Assembly (NCBI GenBank): GCA_028282585.1
Contig: JANQHR010000040.1
Location: 1-64,000, forward strand
Length of the DNA: 64,000 nt
Source: Bacteroidales bacterium
Lineage (GTDB): Bacteria > Bacteroidota > Bacteroidia > Bacteroidales > UBA12077
Direction: 5' to 3'
The notes under the pieces are model-generated. The model was not told the DNA's origin, did not search any database, and saw nothing but the letters and a program-made list of their open reading frames with translations. Position numbers and translations under genes: made by a program. Positions within the stretch are counted from its first letter, which is position 1, and each line of letters opens with the position of its first letter. Below, piece after piece: positions 46,786-61,266 of the stretch.

Positions 46786-47403
46786 TTATTTTTTGTAATT
46801 TTTATCTTTAATTGTACAACCAATTGCTTTAGTAAAGTTTGGATCAGGTTTCTTTCCGTCAAGAACCGCCAAAACCGCGTCTGCTAAATAAGCTTTCTCA
46901 ACAGCATTTGCATCTTTATAATTATCATCTATTGCTCCAATATAAGAAACAACAAAACCATTTTCTTTTTTACTCAATAAATAAACATGCGGTGTTCGCT
47001 TGGCTCCATAAATTTTGTATACCTCCTGAGTTTCATCTAATAAGTACGGGAACGTAAATCCTTTCTCCTTTGCCCTAATAATCATATTTTCATAAGAATC
47101 TTTAGGTTGAATCTCAGGATCATTTGGATTTACAGCTATTACCGGATATCCTTTTTTACTAAATTTTTTATCCAAATCAATTATTCTATCCTCATAGGCA
47201 ATAGCGTAAGGACAATGATTACAAGTAAAAATTACAATTGCTCCTTTGGTTGCTTTATCAAATTCAAATAATGAAACCATTTTACCGTCTATATTTTTAA
47301 GTTTAAAATCTGCGGCCTTATCTCCTACTTTATATCCATCTTGCGCATTTAAACCTAAAATGGCAAACATTAAAAACAAACCGGTTGTTAAAATTTTTTT
47401 CAT
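46786..47403 (-). CDS. Exported thioredoxin-like / AhpC-TSA redoxin
   Basis: Signal peptide; [25 protein letters not shown]. Confidence 0.88.
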   Translation of the reverse strand: MKKILTTGLFLMFAILGLNAQDGYKVGDKAADFKLKNIDGKMVSLFEFDKATKGAIVIFTCNHCPYAIAYEDRIIDLDKKFSKKGYPVIAVNPNDPEIQPKDSYENMIIRAKEKGFTFPYLLDETQEVYKIYGAKRTPHVYLLSKKENGFVVSYIGAIDDNYKDANAVEKAYLADAVLAVLDGKKPDPNFTKAIGCTIKDKNYKK

Positions 47404-47430
47404 CGTTTTTTAGTTTAGTTAAACACTTAT

Positions 47431-47913
47431 TTATAAGAATTTTTTTAATTCTGTTTCTAAATCTTCATATTCGAATTCCTGCTCAAAAAAAGCTCTTTTT
47501 GTATTATTATAAATTAATGTTGCCGGAATTGCACCAGACCAATCTTGATTTACCAAATTAATCCAGGAATTACTATCCGGATCATCAAGTATTATAATTT
47601 TTGATTTTATAGCATGTCTTTTTTTAAAATCAGATATTCTACCCTGAATGTTTTTACCAAAGTCAAGACTGACTAATATAATTTCAACATTCTTGTCAAG
47701 ATATTCTTCATAAAGCTTATTAAACGCTGGCATTTCTTTTACACAAGGTCTGCACCATGTAGCCCAGAAATTAATTACATATACTTTATTATCCTTTTTT
47801 TCAAGTAATGGTTTGAATGAATCGAAACCTTCATAGACTTTAAAGTCTTGAGAATTAACATTAGTTATTCCTAACAATAAAAAGGAAAGTATTATTACTA
47901 ATTTTAGCTTCAT
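47431..47913 (-). CDS. TlpA-family disulfide reductase
   Basis: INFWATWCRPC; signal peptide; WSGAIPAT. Confidence 0.9.
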   Translation of the reverse strand: MKLKLVIILSFLLLGITNVNSQDFKVYEGFDSFKPLLEKKDNKVYVINFWATWCRPCVKEMPAFNKLYEEYLDKNVEIILVSLDFGKNIQGRISDFKKRHAIKSKIIILDDPDSNSWINLVNQDWSGAIPATLIYNNTKRAFFEQEFEYEDLETELKKFL

Positions 47914-50714: not shown

Positions 50715-50747
50715 CGTACAATGCATTATAATTTTTATATTTATAAG

Positions 50748-52955
50748 ATGAATTTAAAAAAGTGGAAATATATTGCTATTCTGGTTCTGGTTTTAATTAA
50801 TTCTAACATATATTCACAAAATAAACAAGACAGCCTTTCTGCATTCAGTTTGAACTCAGGTTCTTTAAATGCTGCCATTGAATTAATCGACTTATCGGAG
50901 CATCATTATACAAGAGGAAACTTAACCAAAGCCATTGTACTTAGTTTCGATGCTTTATCAATAGTAGAGAATAATAATTCAACAGAGTTATTATTCAATA
51001 TATATATTAATTTAGGTAAAATTTATCTGGTTCTTAAAGATTATGAAAAATCATATTATTATATTAATCGGGCTTACCTCATCTCCTTAGAAACAGAAAA
51101 ACATGATTTAAAAATCAATTCAATTAATAATCTTACAACATTTTATTATAAGATTAATGAAATTGACAGTGCCTCTAAATATTCAAACATCGCTTCATCA
51201 AAATATGACATTAGTAATTATGGAGATAATTTAGCCCAAACCCTGCACAATCAGGCTCTGGTATTTAAATATTATCGTAAATATGAAGATGCAATTAATT
51301 CGTTTAAAAAATCCATTGAAATTTGTAAAAATGAAAATAATAACCTTCTGCTGTTAGAAAACTTTATTTCGCTAAGCGAAACATATTTACTTTTAGAAGA
51401 AATTACAAAAGGAGAAATTTACATTAACAAATGCTTGGTAATTTTAGATAATCATACCCTTTTAAATGAATATAAAGTATATAAAGTATTATCAAAAATA
51501 TATCAAACCAAAGGATTTTATAAAGAATCCTTACAGAATTATCAAAAATATGTAAATTTAAAAGACTCTGTTTTACATTCATCATTGATTAAAAATGTTG
51601 CAAATTTAAAAACCACTATCGATTTACGTAAAAGAATAAATGCAATAAATTCATTATCAAAAACAAACGAAAATCAAAAAGCTTTTATTTCAAAACAACA
51701 AAAGAATAAACTTATTCTTATTGCTGTATCTCTTATATTTATTTTACTTATTGTAATTCTAATTTTATTATTTAATGGAAAACAAAAAGCAAATAAAATA
51801 TTAAAGAAACAAAATGAACTTATTAGAGCAAATAATATTGAGATTAAGCAAAAAACAAATCATCTTACAGAAGTTAATCGTGAATTAGAAAAATTAAGTA
51901 TTGCAGCAAGCCAAACAGACAATGCCATACTTATTACAAATACAGAGGGTGAAATTGAATGGATAAACGAAGGATATACAAGACTATACGGATATTCCTT
52001 AAACGAACTAATTCAAGAGAAGGGAAAAACTTACAAACAAACAATATCAAATACTGATATTCATTCTATTGTTGAAAATGTAATAAAAGAAAAAAAATCA
52101 CAGATTTTTGAAGCAAAAGTAGGCTCAAAACAAGGAAAAACATATCGAATAAACACGACATTAACCCCCATTTTGGATTCAAATAATGAAGTAATAAAAC
52201 TAATTGCAATTGATTCGGATGTAACTAAATTAAAAGAAGTTGAAGAAGAGTTACAAAAGCTTTTAATTACTAAAGATAAATTCTTTTCAATTATAGCCCA
52301 TGATTTAAAAAATCCTTTTAACTCCATTATGGGATTAGCGCAACTCTTGGTTCATGGTTATGATCGATTAAGTGAAGAAAAAATAAAATACTATCATAGT
52401 AATTTATACCAAATCTCAAAAAATGGATATGAATTATTAATAAATCTTTTGGAATGGTCGAGATCCCAAATGGGAACCATGCAATTTATACCAACTGAAA
52501 TAAATCTATGTTCAATGGTAGAGGAAACTTTTTCCTTATATAAAGGAAAAGCTGCTCAAAAGGAAATAACACTAACAAATGGTGTTAGGAAAGAATCAAC
52601 TGTTCATGCTGATCAAAACATGTTAAAAACGATTTTAAGAAATTTAGTATCTAATGCTTTAAAATTTACAGATCGCGGCGGTGCAGTTGAAATTATCGAG
52701 AATAATTTTAAAGAATATAAGGAAATCACAGTTCGGGATACCGGAATAGGTATAGAACCGGAAGATTTAAAAAAGCTTTTTGAGTTAGATAAAGGTTTTA
52801 CAACAGTGGGAACTGAAGAAGAAATGGGCACCGGATTAGGATTAGTTCTTTGTAAAGAATTTATTGAAAAACATACCGGTAAAATGCGGGTTGAGAGTAA
52901 AGTAGGTTTTGGTTCAAAATTTATTTTTACGCTTCCGGTTAAATCAAATATTTAG
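50748..52955 (+). CDS. TPR-sensor PAS histidine kinase
   Basis: Periplasmic TPRs, TM, PAS (IEWINEGY), AHDLKNP, SNALKF, DTGIG, GTGLGL; start set at the second Met. Confidence 0.9.
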   Translation: MNLKKWKYIAILVLVLINSNIYSQNKQDSLSAFSLNSGSLNAAIELIDLSEHHYTRGNLTKAIVLSFDALSIVENNNSTELLFNIYINLGKIYLVLKDYEKSYYYINRAYLISLETEKHDLKINSINNLTTFYYKINEIDSASKYSNIASSKYDISNYGDNLAQTLHNQALVFKYYRKYEDAINSFKKSIEICKNENNNLLLLENFISLSETYLLLEEITKGEIYINKCLVILDNHTLLNEYKVYKVLSKIYQTKGFYKESLQNYQKYVNLKDSVLHSSLIKNVANLKTTIDLRKRINAINSLSKTNENQKAFISKQQKNKLILIAVSLIFILLIVILILLFNGKQKANKILKKQNELIRANNIEIKQKTNHLTEVNRELEKLSIAASQTDNAILITNTEGEIEWINEGYTRLYGYSLNELIQEKGKTYKQTISNTDIHSIVENVIKEKKSQIFEAKVGSKQGKTYRINTTLTPILDSNNEVIKLIAIDSDVTKLKEVEEELQKLLITKDKFFSIIAHDLKNPFNSIMGLAQLLVHGYDRLSEEKIKYYHSNLYQISKNGYELLINLLEWSRSQMGTMQFIPTEINLCSMVEETFSLYKGKAAQKEITLTNGVRKESTVHADQNMLKTILRNLVSNALKFTDRGGAVEIIENNFKEYKEITVRDTGIGIEPEDLKKLFELDKGFTTVGTEEEMGTGLGLVLCKEFIEKHTGKMRVESKVGFGSKFIFTLPVKSNI

Positions 52956-53048: not shown

Positions 53049-54110
53049 ATGAAAGAACCCTTAGCTCCCTTTAGTTGTACTTACAGCCCAAATGTACCCG
53101 AATTACTAAAAGATTTAAATATTTCTCTTGCATTAAGTACTTACCAGGCCGGTAAAGTAGTTTTTCTTTCGGCAACAGATAGAGAAAAAATGATTCAACT
53201 CCCACGCAACTTTGAAAAGGCCATGGGAGTTGCCATTTATAAAAATAAAATGGCTATAGCATCAAAAGATGAACTTACAATTTTAGCAAATGCACCAATT
53301 TTAGCAAAAGAATATCCTCCCAAACCGGGTGTTTACGATGCTCTTTATTTACCAAGATTAACATATTATACCGGACAACTTGCATTACACGATACTGCTT
53401 GGACCAAAAACGGATTAGTTTCGGTTAATACGAATTTTTCTTGTTTATCGGTTTTTGATTCTGAATTTAGTTTTAAACCCATTTGGAAGCCACCTTTTAT
53501 TACCGAATTACACCCCGAAGACAGATGTCACTTAAATGGTATGGCTGAACAAAATGGAGAAATAAAATATGTAACTGCATTAGGAAATTCAAATCAACCT
53601 CAAGGTTGGAGAGAAAATAAAATGAATGGAGGAATTTTAATGAATGTTCCGGAAGGCAAAGTTATTCTGGATAAATTACCTATGCCTCATTCACCACGAA
53701 TTTATAATAACAAACTTTATATGCTTTTATCTGCTGCTGGTGAATTAATTGAAGTAAACCCTGAAAAGGGAACCTATGAAACTTTAGTTAAAATTGGTTC
53801 ATTTGCCCGTGGAATGGCAAAATTCGGTGATTATCTTTTTATCGGAACCTCTAAGTTAAGACATAACACTTCAGCATTTAAAGATCTTCCAATAGCAAAA
53901 ACATCCGTAGCTGGAATTAAAATAATCTACTTACCTTATAAAAATATTATTGGAGCAATCGAATATCAAACAAGTGTTGAAGAAATTTATGATGTTCAGG
54001 TATTGCCCGGGATTAACCGTCCAAACATAATAAATCATAATCAGGATGTTCACAAATTAGGATTAGTTAGCCCGGATAATTCTTATTGGGCCAAAGTTGA
54101 AAATAAATAA
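53049..54110 (+). CDS. TIGR03032/DUF4915-family protein
   Basis: STYQAGK, SFKPIWKPPFI, EDRCHLNG, PHSPR, ARG, EIYDVQ; no signal peptide. Confidence 0.88.
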   Translation: MKEPLAPFSCTYSPNVPELLKDLNISLALSTYQAGKVVFLSATDREKMIQLPRNFEKAMGVAIYKNKMAIASKDELTILANAPILAKEYPPKPGVYDALYLPRLTYYTGQLALHDTAWTKNGLVSVNTNFSCLSVFDSEFSFKPIWKPPFITELHPEDRCHLNGMAEQNGEIKYVTALGNSNQPQGWRENKMNGGILMNVPEGKVILDKLPMPHSPRIYNNKLYMLLSAAGELIEVNPEKGTYETLVKIGSFARGMAKFGDYLFIGTSKLRHNTSAFKDLPIAKTSVAGIKIIYLPYKNIIGAIEYQTSVEEIYDVQVLPGINRPNIINHNQDVHKLGLVSPDNSYWAKVENK

Positions 54111-54305
54111 TCCATTGTTAAGGTTTTGTTAAGGTATTCATTTATGCTTCATTCTAAGATAAAGGTATTTTTATCATTACAATAGTTTTGCATCTTTTAT
54201 TCTTTAATTAAAAGTTAATCAAGAATTTACATCAAATGTTGAAATTTTGATTAACTTAGTATTCAAATGACTAAAAATTTTATTCTATAACTATAATTAC
54301 TGCTT

Positions 54306-57300
54306 ATGAAGAAACCATTACTTTACAAAAATCCAAAGTACTTTAAGTTATTTAAAAAATTTCGAAACCTGTACTTACGAATAAAAAGTATGCTCCATGA
54401 TGGATCATATTTTCTTTTAGCGGACCGATTTAAAAAATCTCTTTTTCAAAAGTTCAAATTACTATATGAACGTTTAAATAAAATGCAGTTAAACCTTGGA
54501 ATAAAAACTGCGGGCATAGCTACTGCTTTTCTCTTCATTAGTAATATTGTTGATGCTCAAACAGAAATGCCTAAGGTGTGGGTTGAGAATGAAAAGGGAA
54601 CCGATATCTTCAATAGTGGTATTATGCATGATGATTATACTATTGCAAAATTTGTAGATATTGATAACGATGGTGATGAAGACTTATTCTTAGCTGGCTT
54701 AGATAATAATTCTGGAAAATATTCCTTTAGGTTTTTTGAAAATCAAGGATATGGCGAAGAAGAAATGTTTATAGAGGAAAGTGAAGCAGATACTTTACTT
54801 CCATTTACAGGTTCCAGTTCTAATCCTCCATTTTTCGATTTTATGGATGTAGACGGAGATAACGATTTAGATGCATTCATAATTAACCATGCCGTTTCTG
54901 CAAAAGTTGAATATTACGAAAATATTGGAACTGTAAGTTCTCCTGAATTTGAGCCAGGTGATAATTGCGATAATCCATTTTATAATATTCTTTTTAACGC
55001 TTCAATAGTATTTGAAGATTTAGACGGTGATGATGACTTAGATGCTGTTTTACCCTATGACGGTGCAGTAAATTATTATGAAAATGATGCAGGCATTTTT
55101 ACCCATACTACAGGATCAGATAACCCTTTTAATAGTGTCTACCTTTATTATTATTCAGTTCTTGATTTTGAGGACATTGATGGTGATGGAGATATAGATG
55201 CAATAGTTGGGGACCAATGCTATGGTACCAGGTTCTTAGAAAACATTTCAACCACCGACTTAGCATATTTTGCTTTTTCATGCAACAATCCAATAGAATT
55301 TCAATATGGATATAACCATCATCCAAGTTTTGCAGACTTAGACGAAGATGATGATATGGATTTAATTGTATCTGACTATCGTCGAGAGAATATAAATTTA
55401 CAATATTATGAAAACGGCGTAGACACATTCATATTCCAGGGAGCTCCGCCTAAGGTTCAAATCCCAATAGTTCTTGAGTATGGACAAGCTTCTCTTTTTT
55501 TAGATTTAGACGATGATGGGGACCTAGACCTGTATATTGATAATAAATATTATAATGGTGCTGACCGCTTTTATGAGAATATTGGTAATAAAGAAAATCC
55601 CAAATTTAGAGCAAGAAATTTATCAGGTTTTGGATTACCTGAAAACCTGCATTACACCAGAGAATCATTTATTGATATTGATAATGATGGTGATTACGAT
55701 ATGTTTGTTGCTAATTACTATGCGTATTATGGCGATTATACCGAATACTATAAAAATATTGGAACACCGGAAAACTCAAACTTTGAATTACAAGATCAAT
55801 CAAACAACCCACTAAATGGGATATATGCGGGAGACTATATAAATGCATTAGCCATGGCGGACATGGACGAGGATGGTGATTATGATGTAATTTACAATAC
55901 CTATATATCTGGGTCAGGCAGCATGACATTTGTTTATGAAAATACGGGAACGGTTGAAGAAGCAAGTTTTGTTCAAGCAAGTTTTTCTGATAATCCTTTC
56001 GAAAACATATATTATCCTTATCATATGGTTTTTGAAGATATGGATAATGACGAGGACCTTGATTTGTTGATCGAAGAATGCGGAGGGTTTTCTTATTTTG
56101 AAAATATAGATGAAGCAAAATCTGACATTTATTTTATTGAAAGAACTGGCGAGCTTAACCCGTTAGATACAATGGGGAATGCTGACTCTAATTGGGGATT
56201 CGGAAGATTATTTGATGAAGATGAGATTGCTTTAATTCTTCAGGACCGTAGCTCTCCAGTTAAAGGTAAAGACTTTAAACCTGGCATAAAAGGGAATAAA
56301 GGCAAAAACTTTAAAGCTCCTGTTCCTGATGAGCTTGAAGTTAAATATTACAACTACAAGGACCTCCTCTCAATAGATGACAAAACTATATTGATGGATG
56401 AGAACACAACTGAAGAAACTTTAATTGAAACACTAGCTGCTGAATATTATGGAGACGGAACTTTAACTTATACATTAGATGATGACGGAGTATCAGTCCC
56501 ATTTAGTGTTACAGCTGACGAATTAAGCACAGCGTCAGGGTCAAGTTTCGATTTTGAAACATTAGATGATCCTAGTTATGAGTTTAAAATTAAAGTTAAT
56601 GATGGAACGTATACTGATTCTGCTTCCTATATTGTTACAATTGTCAATATTAACGATAATGCGCCAGTATTTAATGACCAAATAGTAAGCCTCGATGAAA
56701 ATCCTAGTGTTGATGATATTGTTGCAACCTTCAACGCTACCGATGCTGATGAACTTGGCGACTTAACATATTCAATAACAGCAGGAAATACCGATGATGC
56801 CTTTGAGATAAGTGGTAATACGGTTGTAGTTAAAACTGCAGGTGTTATAGATTATGAAACTTTATCCCAAACTACTTATTCTCTTACGGTAGAAGCTTCT
56901 GATGGAACATTGACAGATGATGCAACAATTACAGTTAATATCAATAATATTAATGATAATACACCTGTATTTAATGACCAAACAGTAAGTCTCGATGAAA
57001 ATCCTAGTGTTGACGATATTGTTGCAACCTTCAATGCTACAGACGCTGATAACTTGGGTGCTTTAACATATTCAATTGTTGATGGCAATACAGGTAATGT
57101 ATTCGAAATAAGCAATGATGACATTATTGTCAGCGCTGCAGAATTAATTGATTATGAAACATTGCCGCAGGATCATTACACATTAACTGTGCAAGCTTCC
57201 GATGGAACAAATACCGATGATGCTCAATTAACCGTAAACATCAATAACTTAAATGACAATGCTCCTGTGTTGGATGACCAAACAGTGAACATTGATGAAA

Positions 57301-57815
57301 GTCCTGCTAACGGCAGTCTGGTTGCGACATTAAATGCAACCGATGCTGATAATTTAGGTACTTTAACCTATTCCATTACTGCTGGAAATACCGACGAAGC
57401 ATTCGAAATTAGCACCAATACTGTTATTGTAAAAACAGGTAGTGTTATCGATTATGAAACTGTAACAAATCATCAATTTATTTTAACAGTTCAGGTTTCC
57501 GATGGAGAACTTACAGATGATGCTGCAATTACAGTTAATATTAATAATCCGACAGGAATTGAAGATATCTTGAAGAACGAATTGTTGTTCTACCCAAATC
57601 CTGCTAAAGATGAATTAAACCTGGTAATAGGTTCTGAACTAAAAGAGGAAATTGATATTAAGATTGTAAACAGCATTGGTAACATTGTTAGATCAGAGAA
57701 ATTTAATAATCAAAATGAATTTAGACTGGATGTTTCTAACTTAAGCTCTGGTATTTATTTCTTACAAGTAAACGTTGGAGAAGAAACAGTTACCAAGAAA
57801 ATAATTATTAAATAA
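54306..57815 (+). CDS. T9SS-secreted FG-GAP/VCBS-repeat protein with four cadherin domains and an extended N-terminal leader
   Basis: About nine DxDxDxDxD...(Y/F)EN...NPF repeats; cadherin motifs NDNxP, ATDAD, DYE; type A CTD (YPNPA...GIYFL...KIIIK). Confidence 0.9.
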   Translation: MKKPLLYKNPKYFKLFKKFRNLYLRIKSMLHDGSYFLLADRFKKSLFQKFKLLYERLNKMQLNLGIKTAGIATAFLFISNIVDAQTEMPKVWVENEKGTDIFNSGIMHDDYTIAKFVDIDNDGDEDLFLAGLDNNSGKYSFRFFENQGYGEEEMFIEESEADTLLPFTGSSSNPPFFDFMDVDGDNDLDAFIINHAVSAKVEYYENIGTVSSPEFEPGDNCDNPFYNILFNASIVFEDLDGDDDLDAVLPYDGAVNYYENDAGIFTHTTGSDNPFNSVYLYYYSVLDFEDIDGDGDIDAIVGDQCYGTRFLENISTTDLAYFAFSCNNPIEFQYGYNHHPSFADLDEDDDMDLIVSDYRRENINLQYYENGVDTFIFQGAPPKVQIPIVLEYGQASLFLDLDDDGDLDLYIDNKYYNGADRFYENIGNKENPKFRARNLSGFGLPENLHYTRESFIDIDNDGDYDMFVANYYAYYGDYTEYYKNIGTPENSNFELQDQSNNPLNGIYAGDYINALAMADMDEDGDYDVIYNTYISGSGSMTFVYENTGTVEEASFVQASFSDNPFENIYYPYHMVFEDMDNDEDLDLLIEECGGFSYFENIDEAKSDIYFIERTGELNPLDTMGNADSNWGFGRLFDEDEIALILQDRSSPVKGKDFKPGIKGNKGKNFKAPVPDELEVKYYNYKDLLSIDDKTILMDENTTEETLIETLAAEYYGDGTLTYTLDDDGVSVPFSVTADELSTASGSSFDFETLDDPSYEFKIKVNDGTYTDSASYIVTIVNINDNAPVFNDQIVSLDENPSVDDIVATFNATDADELGDLTYSITAGNTDDAFEISGNTVVVKTAGVIDYETLSQTTYSLTVEASDGTLTDDATITVNINNINDNTPVFNDQTVSLDENPSVDDIVATFNATDADNLGALTYSIVDGNTGNVFEISNDDIIVSAAELIDYETLPQDHYTLTVQASDGTNTDDAQLTVNINNLNDNAPVLDDQTVNIDESPANGSLVATLNATDADNLGTLTYSITAGNTDEAFEISTNTVIVKTGSVIDYETVTNHQFILTVQVSDGELTDDAAITVNINNPTGIEDILKNELLFYPNPAKDELNLVIGSELKEEIDIKIVNSIGNIVRSEKFNNQNEFRLDVSNLSSGIYFLQVNVGEETVTKKIIIK
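56641..57545 (+). repeat. Three tandem 300-bp cadherin repeats
   Basis: Units at 56641, 56941 and 57241 align at an exact 300-bp period. Confidence 0.9.
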
Positions 57816-57842
57816 GTTATTCATATTCTCTTTATAAATTTG

Positions 57843-57870
57843 AGTGTCTCTAAAATTGGGACACTCTTTT
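57843..57870. terminator. Hairpin terminator between convergent cargo and GT41 genes
   Basis: GAGTGTCTC-TAAAATT-GGGACACTC followed by TTTT. Confidence 0.7.
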
Positions 57871-60271
57871 ATTTAATATGAAAAGATTGTGCCACACTGC
57901 CAGATAAATAATTTTCCCAGATCTTGTCGAATCCTTTTTCAAGATTTCTGGCAAATTGCTTAGAATCAAATAAAGCTGAATTTAAAATACTGCTTTCCAA
58001 TTCCTGGCTTATTAACTCTAATTTATCAGGATTTTTTCCGTAATAAATTGCTCTTTCTTTATACTCTTCAATTGAAGTACAAATAAAATCATTTAAACCA
58101 GCTGCATTAAGGATAGAAGTTCCCATACGTGAAGCATTTGTATTTCCGGTATAAGTTAAAACAGGCAAGCCAGCCTGCAAAGCATTTACAGCAGTTGATC
58201 CCGCCGTATAATAAAATGTATCCAAAAATAAATTACAAACCGAATTTCTTGCCATATAATCAGGGAACGGTAAATTCTCTGCAAAAATTATTCTGCTAGA
58301 ATCTAAACTTCTTTTTTTTATCTCATTTATTACGTTTTGTTTATAAATACCTGATCCTCCTTTAAGTAAAAGAACACTTTCAGGTACTTTTTTCAGCACT
58401 TCAACCCAGATATCAAATATTTCAGGAGAGAGCTTATATTGAGAGTTAAAGCAACAATAAATAAAAACATTTTCAGGCAAATTAAAATCACTTCTTTTCT
58501 TTTTATCTTTATTAACATCCAAGACAGAACCCGGAAAGCCATAAGGCAATCGTACAACTTTTTCGTAATAATATGGTTCATGATCATGAGGAATCAATTG
58601 CTCATCACCAAAAATATATTGAATAAACGAATCTCCCATTGTACCAGGAAAACCAACCATTTGACACTGAACCGGGGCTGGTTGTAAAGCTAAAATTTCT
58701 GTTCTTGTATAGGTTGTGTAACCCGATAAATCGATTAAAATATCAATATTTAGATCATAGATCTTTTTTGCTGCCTGCCCTAGTGGAACGTTATATAAAG
58801 AAATAAAATGATCACAATGTTCTCTGAACTTATTCTGAATAGGGTCCTTTTCCAAATCAGCTATAATTGAAAAGCAGTATACCTCATATTCATCTTTGTT
58901 ATGTTCGCCAATAAAATCAACCGTTACTCTACCTGTCGGATGATCCCGAAAATCAGGTGAAATATAACCAATGCGAAGTTTTTCTTTCACCACTGGCCTA
59001 TGCTTAAACTTAACTTCAGATTTTAATCGTTCAACTTTTCTTAAATTATTTCTAGCTGTATGCTCTGATGCTCTTTTTAAAAATTCTTTATCTTGTTTAA
59101 AGTAGTTAAGGTTTAAAAATGGAATGGGAGCATTTGTTTCCTGTTCAATTTGTTTTAAACTTATTTCTCTTAAAGTTCTTTCATCATCTTTTCTTTGACT
59201 CCAATCACAAACATTTAATCTATGCCTAATTAATTCATGTTGAACAGTAAAATTATCCGGATTTACTCTTATCGCTTTTGATAAAAATTCTATGGCTTTT
59301 TCATCCTGCTTTAAATCACTGTATGATTTAGCCATCGCATATAATAAAAGATCCGAATCTTGATTAAGTTTATAGGCTAAATTATATGCCTTCTGCGCTT
59401 TTTTAAAAAAACCTGTTTGATGATAAGATATTCCTAATTGATACAAAGTTTCGTAATGTTCTGGAAATAATTCATGATTTTTTGATAAAAGCCTGATTGC
59501 CAATTTAAAATCTCCATTATTGATAGCAAGTATGGCAGACCCGAATAAAATATCAGGGATTTTTTGAGTTTTTTTGAATAAATCTTCAAATGCCTTCATA
59601 GCCTTTTCATAAGGGTAAATCCTTCCGTAAAGTTCCATCAAATTCTTATAACCTTTTTCCAATCCAGGATTTAATATTATGGCCCTTTCATATTCCTTTA
59701 AAGCTTCCTCATATTTATTTTTTAATTGTAAAATATTCCCAAAATTCAAATGAAGCTGAGCATTTTCAGGATTCAATTTGAGGGCTTTTCGATACAATTC
59801 TTCAGCTTTATCAACTTTTCCTGTACCATGGTATATATTACCTAAATTATTTAAAGCTATAATAGATTGAGGTTTTATTTCTAATACCTTATTATAAATT
59901 TCAATTGCTTCCTTATTTTTATTTTCTTTTCGATAAATTTTAGCAAGATTTATCATCGCAGGAGTATACTTCTCATCCAAAATAATTGATTGCGAAAAAA
60001 AATTTTTAGCATTCACTAAGTTATCTAATTGAATATATGCTTTACCAATATTATTTAATATCTCGGGGTTATTAGCATTTACTTTATTTGCCCTTTCTAA
60101 AAATCGTAAAGCTATGTTTGGTTTTTTAGCTTTTAAATACAACTTACCAGCGTTAACAAGCCCTTGTAAATGATTTGGATTTTGCTTTAGTATTTCTTGG
60201 TAAAGATTAAGTGCTTCTTGATATTTTCCTTCTTTATATTTTTGCAGTGCAATTATTAAGATATCTTCCAT
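57869..60271 (-). CDS. TPR-repeat GT41 glycosyltransferase (OGT/SPINDLY-like)
   Basis: About ten TPRs, then RIGYISPDFRDHP, DILIDLSGYT, APVQ..GFPGT, FNSQYK, LDTF..GST, ASRMG; no signal peptide. Confidence 0.92.
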   Translation of the reverse strand: MEDILIIALQKYKEGKYQEALNLYQEILKQNPNHLQGLVNAGKLYLKAKKPNIALRFLERANKVNANNPEILNNIGKAYIQLDNLVNAKNFFSQSIILDEKYTPAMINLAKIYRKENKNKEAIEIYNKVLEIKPQSIIALNNLGNIYHGTGKVDKAEELYRKALKLNPENAQLHLNFGNILQLKNKYEEALKEYERAIILNPGLEKGYKNLMELYGRIYPYEKAMKAFEDLFKKTQKIPDILFGSAILAINNGDFKLAIRLLSKNHELFPEHYETLYQLGISYHQTGFFKKAQKAYNLAYKLNQDSDLLLYAMAKSYSDLKQDEKAIEFLSKAIRVNPDNFTVQHELIRHRLNVCDWSQRKDDERTLREISLKQIEQETNAPIPFLNLNYFKQDKEFLKRASEHTARNNLRKVERLKSEVKFKHRPVVKEKLRIGYISPDFRDHPTGRVTVDFIGEHNKDEYEVYCFSIIADLEKDPIQNKFREHCDHFISLYNVPLGQAAKKIYDLNIDILIDLSGYTTYTRTEILALQPAPVQCQMVGFPGTMGDSFIQYIFGDEQLIPHDHEPYYYEKVVRLPYGFPGSVLDVNKDKKKRSDFNLPENVFIYCCFNSQYKLSPEIFDIWVEVLKKVPESVLLLKGGSGIYKQNVINEIKKRSLDSSRIIFAENLPFPDYMARNSVCNLFLDTFYYTAGSTAVNALQAGLPVLTYTGNTNASRMGTSILNAAGLNDFICTSIEEYKERAIYYGKNPDKLELISQELESSILNSALFDSKQFARNLEKGFDKIWENYLSGSVAQSFHIK

Positions 60272-60687: not shown

Positions 60688-61266
60688 ATGGCATTTACAT
60701 TACAAATTGGAGATAAAGCACCGGATTTTAATTTACCGGCAACAGATGGTAGTTCATATCAATTATCTGACTTTAATGAGAAAATACTGGTTATATTTTT
60801 TACTTGCAATCATTGTCCATATGTAATTGGTTCTGATGAAACAACAAGAAAAACAGTGGAAAAATATACACCGCAAGGAGTTCGGTTTATAGGTATTAAT
60901 TCTAATAGTAAAAATACTTATGAAGAGGATAGTTTCCCTAACATGGTTAAAAGAATGGAAGAAAATAGTTTTCCATGGTTATATTTATATGATGAATCTC
61001 AAGATATAGCTATGGATTATGGTGCCTTGAAAACACCGCACTTTTTTGTTTTCAATGAATCAAGGCATTTGATATATACAGGACGCGCTATTGATAATCC
61101 ACGGGATCCATCAAAAATGACAGTAAACGATCTGGAGAATATTTTAGATAAACATTTAGCAGATAAAGAAATTTGCCCGAAAGTTACAAATCCTATTGGT
61201 TGTAATATTAAATGGGAAGGAAAAGATAAACACTGGATGCCTGCAGAAGCATGTGACTTAGTGTAA
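60688..61266 (+). CDS. Cytoplasmic thioredoxin-like / AhpC-TSA redoxin
   Basis: [25 protein letters not shown]. Confidence 0.88.

Follow-up and report, generated by a model that had tools for sequence, protein, structure and literature searches.

In type 5 secretion, secreted adhesins are glycosylated in the cytoplasm before Sec export, and their export is slowed by long signal peptides. HMW1C glycosylates HMW1A and the bacterial autotransporter heptosyltransferases (BAHTs) glycosylate autotransporters, in both cases before Sec, and the coordination of cytoplasmic modification with Sec targeting is listed as an open question (excerpts of PMC8151025). Here we analysed a stretch of 64,000 nucleotides from a Bacteroidales bacterium (assembly GCA_028282585.1, contig JANQHR010000040.1, positions 1 to 64,000), called the window below. 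It contains side by side a gene of the DUF4915/TIGR03032 family, a gene for a large FG-GAP/cadherin protein with a sorting domain of the type IX secretion system (T9SS), called the cargo, and a gene for an enzyme of glycosyltransferase family 41 (GT41) with tetratricopeptide repeats (TPR). Protein O-glycosylation in Bacteroidota is known as a periplasmic process.

On balance, this locus is probably one example of an undescribed but widespread system that has DUF4915 at its centre and modifies surface proteins ahead of export. At the core of this system stand DUF4915 and an FG-GAP cargo that carries an N-terminal extension (a leader) ahead of its signal peptide, and GT41 is one of several exchangeable accessories. 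An earlier note on this DNA had read the three genes as a dedicated cytoplasmic pathway acting on the cargo before export. The co-occurrence, the fusions and the recurrence of the triple agree with that reading, whereas the core role given to GT41, the likeness to HMW1C and the weight put on N-X-S/T sequons had to be given up.

A full-text literature search, with most subscription-journal papers outside its coverage, returned no paper on DUF4915, TIGR03032, PF16261 or GT41 together with FG-GAP. For extended signal peptides and type IX secretion only type 5 or general papers were found, and for GT41 the known papers on OGT, SPINDLY, HMW1C and Yersinia HmwC, as far as the available excerpts go. 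The DUF4915/TIGR03032 family comprises 2832 cluster representatives (50% identity) at E up to 0.001 and 764 at 1e-30, and a family of this size for which no paper was found gives the size of the gap addressed here.

Linkage of DUF4915 with FG-GAP cargos and partner enzymes

In the genome of the window (4.9 Mb, 173 contigs), DUF4915 and GT41 are present in one copy each, 3.8 kb apart. Among 61 related genomes DUF4915 was found in 6 and GT41 in 3, and all 3 GT41 genomes contain DUF4915; these genomes are kin, so the counts give no independent statistic. One relative (G008) is fully syntenic with the window through histidine kinase, DUF4915, cargo, GT41 and redoxin, with proteins 47–79% identical, and another (G033) has two DUF4915 genes and no GT41.

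For a wider view, a pattern scan with one genome per species found at least 594 DUF4915 relatives and returned 80 loci, coming from many Bacteroidota families as well as Myxococcota, Spirochaetota, Planctomycetota, Cyanobacteriota, Acidobacteriota and Pseudomonadota. Genes were called simply as the longest non-overlapping open reading frames (ORFs), and a DUF4915 gene was called in 74 of the 80 loci. Of the 71 loci with a downstream gene, 37 have a member of one BLAST-linked FG-GAP-like family as the next gene on the same strand (+1), and 46 of 74 loci have one within three genes on either side of DUF4915. Farther out, at four or more positions, the family makes up only 8 of 478 genes, 5 of them at +4. 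FG-GAP together with Por_Secre_tail or CHU_C was confirmed by Pfam in the tested representatives. The linkage between DUF4915 and the cargo is not due to chance; it is conserved, real and strong.

Some partners outside Bacteroidota, namely those of planctomycetes (3286 aa), Competibacteraceae and Elainellales, are unmatched by the Pfam FG-GAP models and join the family through a shared repeat of the type D-x-D-G-D-F-V-V. The planctomycete partners are giant proteins: the +1 genes at L088, L095 and L100 encode about 3286 aa, with a further case at L089. Their N-termini contain a basic stretch followed by a motif like R-R-L-x-x-D/E-P-L-E-E-R-x-L-L-S, unlike the Bacteroidota-type leader, and their sole Pfam match is a proprotein-convertase P domain. 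A second partner class (L091 11170-12873, L084 9371-11353 and L025 66-4057) has repeats of the form G-x-E-F-x-V-N-T-Y-T ... D-A-D-G-D-F-V-V-x-W; the one example scanned, the 567-aa partner of L091, matched no Pfam family at E up to 0.001.

In a sample of 401 genomes of the phylum, each at least 90% complete, full-length DUF4915 was found in 10 genomes and GT41 in 47. Of the 10 DUF4915 genomes, 6 have the two genes no more than 4 kb apart, and five of these six pairs are directly adjacent, in the order GT41 then DUF4915. In four of the five adjacent pairs (L111–L114), from a different family of the same phylum and with another gene order than the window, the gene before GT41 encodes an FG-GAP protein of 1032–1061 aa with seven FG-GAP repeats, a T9SS C-terminal domain (Por_Secre_tail) and a pre-signal extension of about 75 residues. 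The order FG-GAP, GT41, DUF4915 was found in an Acidobacteriota metagenome-assembled genome (L075). The triple therefore recurs in other orders and in other phyla.

DUF4915 is also fused to many enzymes. In a search for DUF4915 relatives of 619–2000 residues 315 were found, and the domains were tallied by eye for the 120 listed. GT41 is the commonest partner (34 of 120, nearly all with TPR), followed by sulfotransferase (29, most also with the Asp/Asn beta-hydroxylase family), TPR only (19), GNAT (14), GT9 (9), GT2 (3), the Asp/Asn hydroxylase alone (3), a CysN/EF-Tu-like GTPase (2), FG-GAP (2) and a periplasmic-binding family (1), while 4 long forms contain no second family. The domain orders, checked in eight fusions, are TPR-GT41-DUF4915 (P0019), hydroxylase-sulfotransferase-DUF4915, DUF4915-GNAT, DUF4915-GT2-TPR, DUF4915-TPR, GTPase-DUF4915, hydroxylase-DUF4915 and DUF4915-FG-GAP. 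Little weight is placed on the single chains of DUF4915 and FG-GAP because they may be merged gene calls: P0018 is a lone sequence from one contig, and in P0023 a truncated DUF4915 seems to run into a leader. Separate genes in similar combinations also exist, for example DUF4915, GNAT and FG-GAP cargo in G385, or GT41 followed by a DUF4915-GNAT fusion in G432, and cytochrome P450 and APS kinase are DUF4915 neighbours in 7 and 5 survey loci, respectively. The partner enzymes use cytoplasmic donors (UDP-sugar, 3'-phosphoadenosine 5'-phosphosulfate, acetyl-CoA), and since the fusion partners depend on these donors, DUF4915 would act in the cytoplasm. The earlier note had placed DUF4915 beside or fused to TPR-glycosyltransferases near FG-GAP proteins, and had named a lack of conserved co-occurrence of the three families as a refutation; the neighbourhoods and the fusions show that the co-occurrence is conserved.

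In a tree of 33 GT41 catalytic domains (the linked L025, L036 and L091 were left out, their BLAST segments failing the length filter), enzymes linked or fused to DUF4915 are scattered over several lineages and mixed with unlinked enzymes. On this tree 4 changes are required for the label "linked" and 2 for "fused".

The extension ahead of the signal peptide

The earlier note had called the cargo secreted, and a signal peptide is indeed present, but a basic extension ahead of the signal segment had been overlooked. The hydrophobic signal segment of the cargo begins only at residue 67. Such an extension, 50–90 residues long, strongly basic and made of two helices ahead of an otherwise normal signal peptide, characterises most of the partner cargos, whose N-terminal plan consists of two basic helices separated by a turn, then the hydrophobic core and a cleavage site of the A-Q type, often followed directly by N-P-F-G-L. 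In a cluster of 58 FG-GAP-like neighbour proteins, those from the loci of the window and its relatives included, 37 have their hydrophobic core beginning at residue 51–88, with a net charge of +8 to +18 ahead of it. The alignment of 27 leadered N-termini (A4) contains "AQ" at the same position in the other leaders, and Q85 is conserved in at least 90% of the alignment. Based on this alignment, AlphaFold (AF2) predicted helices at residues 10–32 and 40–64, with a predicted local distance difference test score (pLDDT) of about 90, and then the signal helix at 69–83.

The extension is rare and follows DUF4915. Only 4 of the 2756 ORFs of at least 200 aa in the genome of the window have this architecture, with the highest charge in the cargo. 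Of the four ORFs with FG-GAP_3 repeats in this genome, the one beside DUF4915 is alone in having the extension, and the three others have ordinary short signal peptides. When the 61 relatives were searched with a profile of 32 leaders, strong matches (E 1e-9 or better) were found only in four of the six DUF4915-positive genomes (G028 with five, G033 with two, G000 and G008 with one each). The 55 DUF4915-negative genomes lack strong matches altogether, and a single borderline match (E 0.0098) among them covers the signal-peptide part only. The leaders of G000, G008 and G033 were themselves in the profile and their matches arise by construction, so that the informative results are the five matches in G028 and the absence elsewhere. 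All seven further leadered proteins examined are FG-GAP proteins; six of them have a T9SS C-terminal domain (Por_Secre_tail or CHU_C) and the seventh is cut at a contig end. A profile match of 4e-10 to the leader of the window was discarded as circular, the model holding the same leader, and was used only for the absence of other matches in the genome of the window.

The extension is not the known extended signal peptide region (ESPR, PF13018) as far as a Pfam scan of the cargo at E up to 0.01 goes: it returned four families, none within residues 1–90. A complex prediction of DUF4915 (alignment A2) with cargo residues 1–110 (A4) gave a score of 0.02 against a mark of 0.32 and was weighed neither way.

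Two further observations concern the leaders. G028 contains a single DUF4915 and five leadered FG-GAP cargos on separate contigs (C189, C9, C4, C133 and C118), and because of this several cargos may be served by one DUF4915. The cargo N-termini of L111–L114 carry a different, well conserved pre-signal extension of about 75 residues with a C-W-V/I-E-G motif, whose sequence is unrelated to the basic two-helix type.

Proteins and features of the locus in the window

All three ORFs described in the earlier note are present where it placed them (Table 1), and no signal-peptide-like start was seen in the sequence of DUF4915 or GT41, in line with the note; in the structure model, the N-terminus of DUF4915 is part of the propeller.

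Table 1. Coordinates of the features of the DUF4915 locus in the window
Feature	Position	Strand	Remark
DUF4915/TIGR03032 gene	53049..54110	+	ORF, 353 aa (P0001)
FG-GAP/cadherin T9SS cargo gene	54306..57815	+	ORF, 1169 aa (P0002)
Pre-signal extension of cargo, residues 1-66	54306..54503	+	Net charge +15, two predicted helices
Hydrophobic core of signal peptide and probable signal peptidase I site (...VDA/Q)	54504..54560	+	Read from sequence
FG-GAP/VCBS-type repeat region	54615..56225	+	At least 8 acidic D-x-D-x-D-G-type loops (regex); Asp/Asn/Tyr-rich
Three cadherin-like domains	56373..57560	+	PF00028, 123.5 bits in 3 stretches
T9SS type A C-terminal sorting domain	57591..57809	+	Por_Secre_tail and TIGR04183
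GC-rich, terminator-like hairpin between the two convergent stop codons	57842..57866		9-pair stem, then T run
TPR-GT41 gene	57869..60271	-	ORF, 800 aa (P0003), convergent with cargo
GT41 catalytic domain, residues 354-800	57872..59212	-	OGT/SPINDLY-like, without metazoan intervening domain
TPR region of GT41 protein, residues 1-350	59222..60271	-	Multiple TPR families

The DUF4915 protein (P0001) matched DUF4915 (PF16261) with 369.1 bits (cut-off 35) over model positions 2–316 of 316, and TIGR03032 with 362.1 bits (cut-off 251.5). It contains the family motifs STYQ-GK, DRCHLNG and MPHSPR, which include both motifs (DRCHLNG, PHSPR) pointed out in the earlier note. At E up to 10, a Pfam scan of four DUF4915 family members found no family besides DUF4915. 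Conservation was scored in 61 diverse stand-alone members, 31–54% identical to the window protein: ten positions are invariant (H114, W146, P148, D158, C160, H161, G195, H214, P216 and G255), among them three His, one Cys and one Asp, and many more are nearly so.

The AlphaFold (AF2) model of DUF4915 is all-beta (pLDDT 96.7, predicted TM-score 0.93), and DUF4915 models as a cytoplasmic six-bladed beta-propeller, the blade number being given by Foldseek and by an aligner independent of it. With the structure aligner, the best fold matches are YWTD propellers (Z 23), then lactonases, NHL, Kelch, aryl sulfate sulfotransferase (Z 19.2) and PAL (Z 19.1). Foldseek against the Protein Data Bank (PDB) returned generic Kelch, YWTD, TolB and YVTN propellers at TM about 0.5, and a sequence profile of DUF4915 against the PDB gave weak matches to the NHL "Pizza" protein and soluble glucose dehydrogenase (E 9e-4 and worse). 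From Protein Atlas came unnamed clusters at 0.89 plus one cluster with NHL on 20% of its members, nothing usable. According to alignment and model, the three invariant His sit at strand starts in successive blades, and they appear to cluster at the centre of the propeller; propeller enzymes have their central active site at such strand starts. In our judgement, the invariant residues are better explained by a metal or catalytic site than by a pocket that binds a leader of low conservation.

A role of DUF4915 as an aryl sulfotransferase was considered and rejected, and is kept as a lead only. It has no sequence support, PF05935 (aryl sulfate sulfotransferase) has zero matches anywhere in the genome of the window, and the fold score of 3elq, with 268 residues aligned, is tied with those of many unrelated propellers. 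As a side observation, 14 of the 401 phylum-sample genomes, mostly from one family, contain only a weak partial DUF4915 match (e.g. G302:C1:3451203-3451589), at model positions of about 176–308 and 32–56 bits in ORFs of mostly about 330 aa, which looks like a distant paralogous propeller family.

The GT41 domain matched Glyco_transf_41 (PF13844) with 249.6 bits (cut-off 25) in two parts, at model positions 1–228 and 358–543, and the section of the model for the intervening domain is missing from it. The enzyme is similar to human OGT (E 1e-107), SPINDLY (7e-68) and XcOGT (3e-52), and its DFRDHPT aligns with DFGNHPT of human OGT, the DF-x-x-HPT motif being kept. The catalytic His and the UDP-binding Lys are presumably the equivalents of H498 and K842. 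Against the N-glycosyltransferase (NGT) equivalog NF049992 the enzyme scored only 34.1 bits (cut-off 1000), in its C-terminal half; it is of the OGT/SPINDLY kind and no N-glycosyltransferase of the HMW1C type, with which the earlier note had drawn a comparison. Because the enzyme is OGT-like and the NGT model is not reached, its chemistry is more likely to be an O-linked modification of Ser/Thr.

The cargo matched FG-GAP_3 with 70 bits (cut-off 26.9) in 4 stretches spanning 54657–56072, Por_Secre_tail with 67.6 bits (cut-off 27) at residues 1096–1168 and TIGR04183 with 55 bits (cut-off 23). The N-X-S/T sequons listed earlier are all real, and one more NLS brings them to 10. They are not enriched: shuffled sequences contain 13.7 ± 3.3, and 91% of the shuffles have 10 or more. 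In view of these shuffles and of the NGT model score, N-glycosylation at sequons is no longer taken as the leading idea.

Several neighbouring genes recur around DUF4915. A histidine kinase with TPR, PAS, HisKA and HATPase domains (50721-52955, +) lies 94 bp 5' of DUF4915 on the same strand and is kept at the same place in G008 (52% identity). A loosely linked TPR/kinase cluster is found near DUF4915 in 9 loci, where the link may run through the TPR repeats only. Three genes for thioredoxin-fold proteins of the AhpC/TSA-redoxin type surround the module (46786-47913, -, and 60688-61266, +); the 192-aa redoxin adjoining GT41 is the same neighbour in G008 and G028 (75–76% identity). In L112–L114 a conserved pair of genes stands beside the GT41-DUF4915 operon, 3' of DUF4915 on the opposite strand, encoding a 138-aa protein that resembles a MarR-type regulator and a 650-aa adenylate/guanylate cyclase-TPR protein. 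Moreover, two small Pfam-less families recur beside DUF4915, one of about 137 aa (L092 9109-9522 and 6 other loci) and one of about 167 aa (L035 7820-8323 and 4 other loci).

Proposed mechanism, alternatives and known systems

The proposed mechanism builds on what is observed: the gene linkage, the fusions, an extension confined to genomes with DUF4915, the propeller fold and the invariant residues. The cargo would be the substrate, modified before export, with DUF4915 as catalyst or adaptor. It would be made with an extension that either holds it in the cytoplasm long enough or marks it for recognition. DUF4915 would then act on it, most likely as a metal-dependent enzyme or as a docking platform, through the face that carries the invariant His, Cys and Asp. 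The accessory would be a cytoplasmic group-transfer enzyme that varies by lineage and is encoded beside DUF4915 or fused to it: here the OGT-like TPR-GT41, elsewhere GNAT, a sulfotransferase with or without the Asp/Asn hydroxylase domain, GT2 or GT9. In the window, GT41 would put an O-linked sugar on Ser/Thr of the still export-competent cargo, which would leave through Sec, be cleaved after ...VDA and be secreted by the T9SS via its C-terminal domain. It is possible, although we hold it only tentatively, that DUF4915 represents a novel kind of enzyme, metal-dependent and acting on proteins, to which the two-helix extension as a leader delivers full-length FG-GAP-type cargos in the cytoplasm. 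DUF4915 might then install or expose a handle, possible sites being the acidic D-x-D-G loops or Tyr, Ser or Thr next to them, and lineage-specific transferases might decorate the handle, a leader-guided tailoring in at least six phyla similar to that of ribosomally synthesized and post-translationally modified peptides (RiPPs).

Modification of the cargo in the cytoplasm is a well-motivated prediction, which we consider moderately probable, and a number of observations tell against it or narrow it. GT41, which the earlier note had made the central enzyme, is an accessory present in only 6 of the 74 survey loci and absent from 68. In the phylum sample, 41 of the 47 GT41-positive genomes contain no full-length DUF4915, so GT41 also works without it. 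In G028 the two genes are on different contigs, and in the window GT41 is convergent with the cargo and therefore a separate transcription unit. Since the sequons are not enriched, the analogy with N-glycosylation is weak. As for the extension, its sequence conservation is low (about 22–25% column identity), and the leader profile found no match in G044 and G049, both DUF4915-positive relatives with their loci on short contigs. A profile of 31 leaders made without the window and its relatives missed the extension of the window in its own genome, where its best matches were unrelated (E 0.038 and 0.16); from this miss we conclude that the extension has sub-types. The fold is generic: the Z-scores of YWTD, Kelch, lactonase, NHL, aryl sulfotransferase and PAL propellers differ by only a few units, and as no match stands out it names no function. 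Finally, GT9, GT2, the LpxO-like hydroxylase, sulfotransferase, P450 and APS kinase elsewhere act on glycans, lipids or small molecules, and the substrate therefore need not be a protein.

This last point leads to an alternative that we regard as unlikely, in which DUF4915 and the variable transferases tailor a non-protein molecule (a surface glycan, a lipid or a secondary metabolite) and the FG-GAP protein is a partner for binding, anchoring or processing. The fusion partners include families typical of such tailoring (GT2, GT9, sulfotransferase, an LpxO-type PF05118 domain and a CysN-like GTPase), P450 and APS kinase are found among the neighbours, and propeller enzymes of similar Z (lactonases, aryl sulfotransferase, strictosidine synthase) act on small molecules. 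Nevertheless, the commonest glycosyltransferase partner, GT41, is known from its characterised members as a family that modifies proteins, and most glycosyltransferase fusions carry TPR repeats. The minimal unit is DUF4915 plus a leadered cargo, without genes for making donors or exporting polymers, and the confinement of the extension to DUF4915 genomes points to a cytoplasmic event on the cargo itself.

The same minimal unit, often without any other enzyme nearby, would also suit a DUF4915 that is no enzyme but a holdase, targeting factor or adaptor, which binds the extension, keeps the propeller cargo export-competent and sometimes recruits a transferase. The closest folds by Z are ligand- or peptide-binding propellers (YWTD, Kelch, TolB), and DUF4915 is found fused N- or C-terminally to a wide variety of enzymes, as expected of a recruiting module. 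HMW1C has been proposed as a chaperone of HMW1A (excerpts of PMC8151025). We find this explanation quite unlikely, given ten invariant positions in DUF4915 set against such variable extensions: for residues so invariant a metal or active site would be expected rather than a binding pocket for so variable a ligand. Very improbable is chance adjacency, or shared ancestry within one genus, of three genes with unrelated functions. Inheritance alone could explain the synteny between G000 and G008, and the genes are not adjacent in G028, but the pairings recur in Bacteroidota families, Acidobacteriota, Cyanobacteriota, Planctomycetota, Myxococcota and Pseudomonadota, in different orders and as fusions, and this explanation is already contradicted.

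If modification before export is true, it would give Bacteroidota T9SS cargos a second, cytoplasmic modification route and would bear on the question, listed as open for type 5 secretion, of how cytoplasmic modification is coordinated with Sec targeting (excerpts of PMC8151025). The substrates of bacterial OGT-like enzymes are mostly obscure, and the cargos would be a first candidate substrate class. A defined cargo class, a recognisable pre-signal extension and exchangeable transferases together point to protein modification in the cytoplasm before export.

The closest described systems are HMW1C/HMW1A and the NGT-adhesin pairs of type 5b secretion. Like them, the locus encodes a dedicated cytoplasmic enzyme of the GT41 family together with a large secreted adhesin-like protein, and HMW1A-type adhesins also have an unusually long signal sequence and are modified before Sec export (excerpts of PMC8151025). 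Unlike HMW1C, the GT41 of the window is OGT/SPINDLY-like with a long TPR arm and stays below the NGT model, and the sequons of its cargo are not enriched. The cargo would use the T9SS instead of two-partner secretion, its extension has no match to the ESPR model, and a third, more strongly conserved component, DUF4915, is present. Taken together, phylum, secretion route, kind of extension, third component and exchangeable transferase all differ from the type 5 precedents.

The BAHT systems with AIDA-I, TibA or Ag43 share O-linked cytoplasmic glycosylation of repeat-rich secreted adhesins, which is predicted here, by a dedicated enzyme encoded adjacent or elsewhere in the genome (excerpts of PMC8151025). 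Some DUF4915 fusions carry a domain of the GT9 heptosyltransferase family, as the BAHT heptosyltransferases do. The enzyme family, the cargo fold (beta-helix versus FG-GAP propeller) and the secretion route are different, and BAHT systems have no DUF4915. With OGT and SPINDLY the window enzyme shares the TPR arm, the GT-B catalytic domain, the DF-x-x-HPT motif and the high similarity to human OGT noted above; the known enzymes have many nucleocytoplasmic targets, according to the excerpts available, whereas the context in the window points to one class of secreted cargo and a partner propeller.

The extension resembles RiPP leaders in being a removable N-terminal part found only in genomes with the partner protein, and exchangeable tailoring enzymes are attached to a common module in both cases. 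In contrast to RiPPs, the candidate substrates are full-length secreted proteins of 400–3300 residues and the extension lies ahead of a Sec signal peptide; a RiPP recognition element was undetected, and the likeness is one of logic only. DUF4915 itself shares the fold class with the propeller enzymes 3elq, PAL (3fw0) and the SGL lactonases (Z 19–20), including His at blade strand starts, and binding propellers score equal or higher and a sequence match to these enzymes is absent. The context of DUF4915 is rich in sulfation functions, with APS kinase neighbours and CysN-like and sulfotransferase fusions, which recalls the aryl sulfate sulfotransferase among these propeller enzymes.

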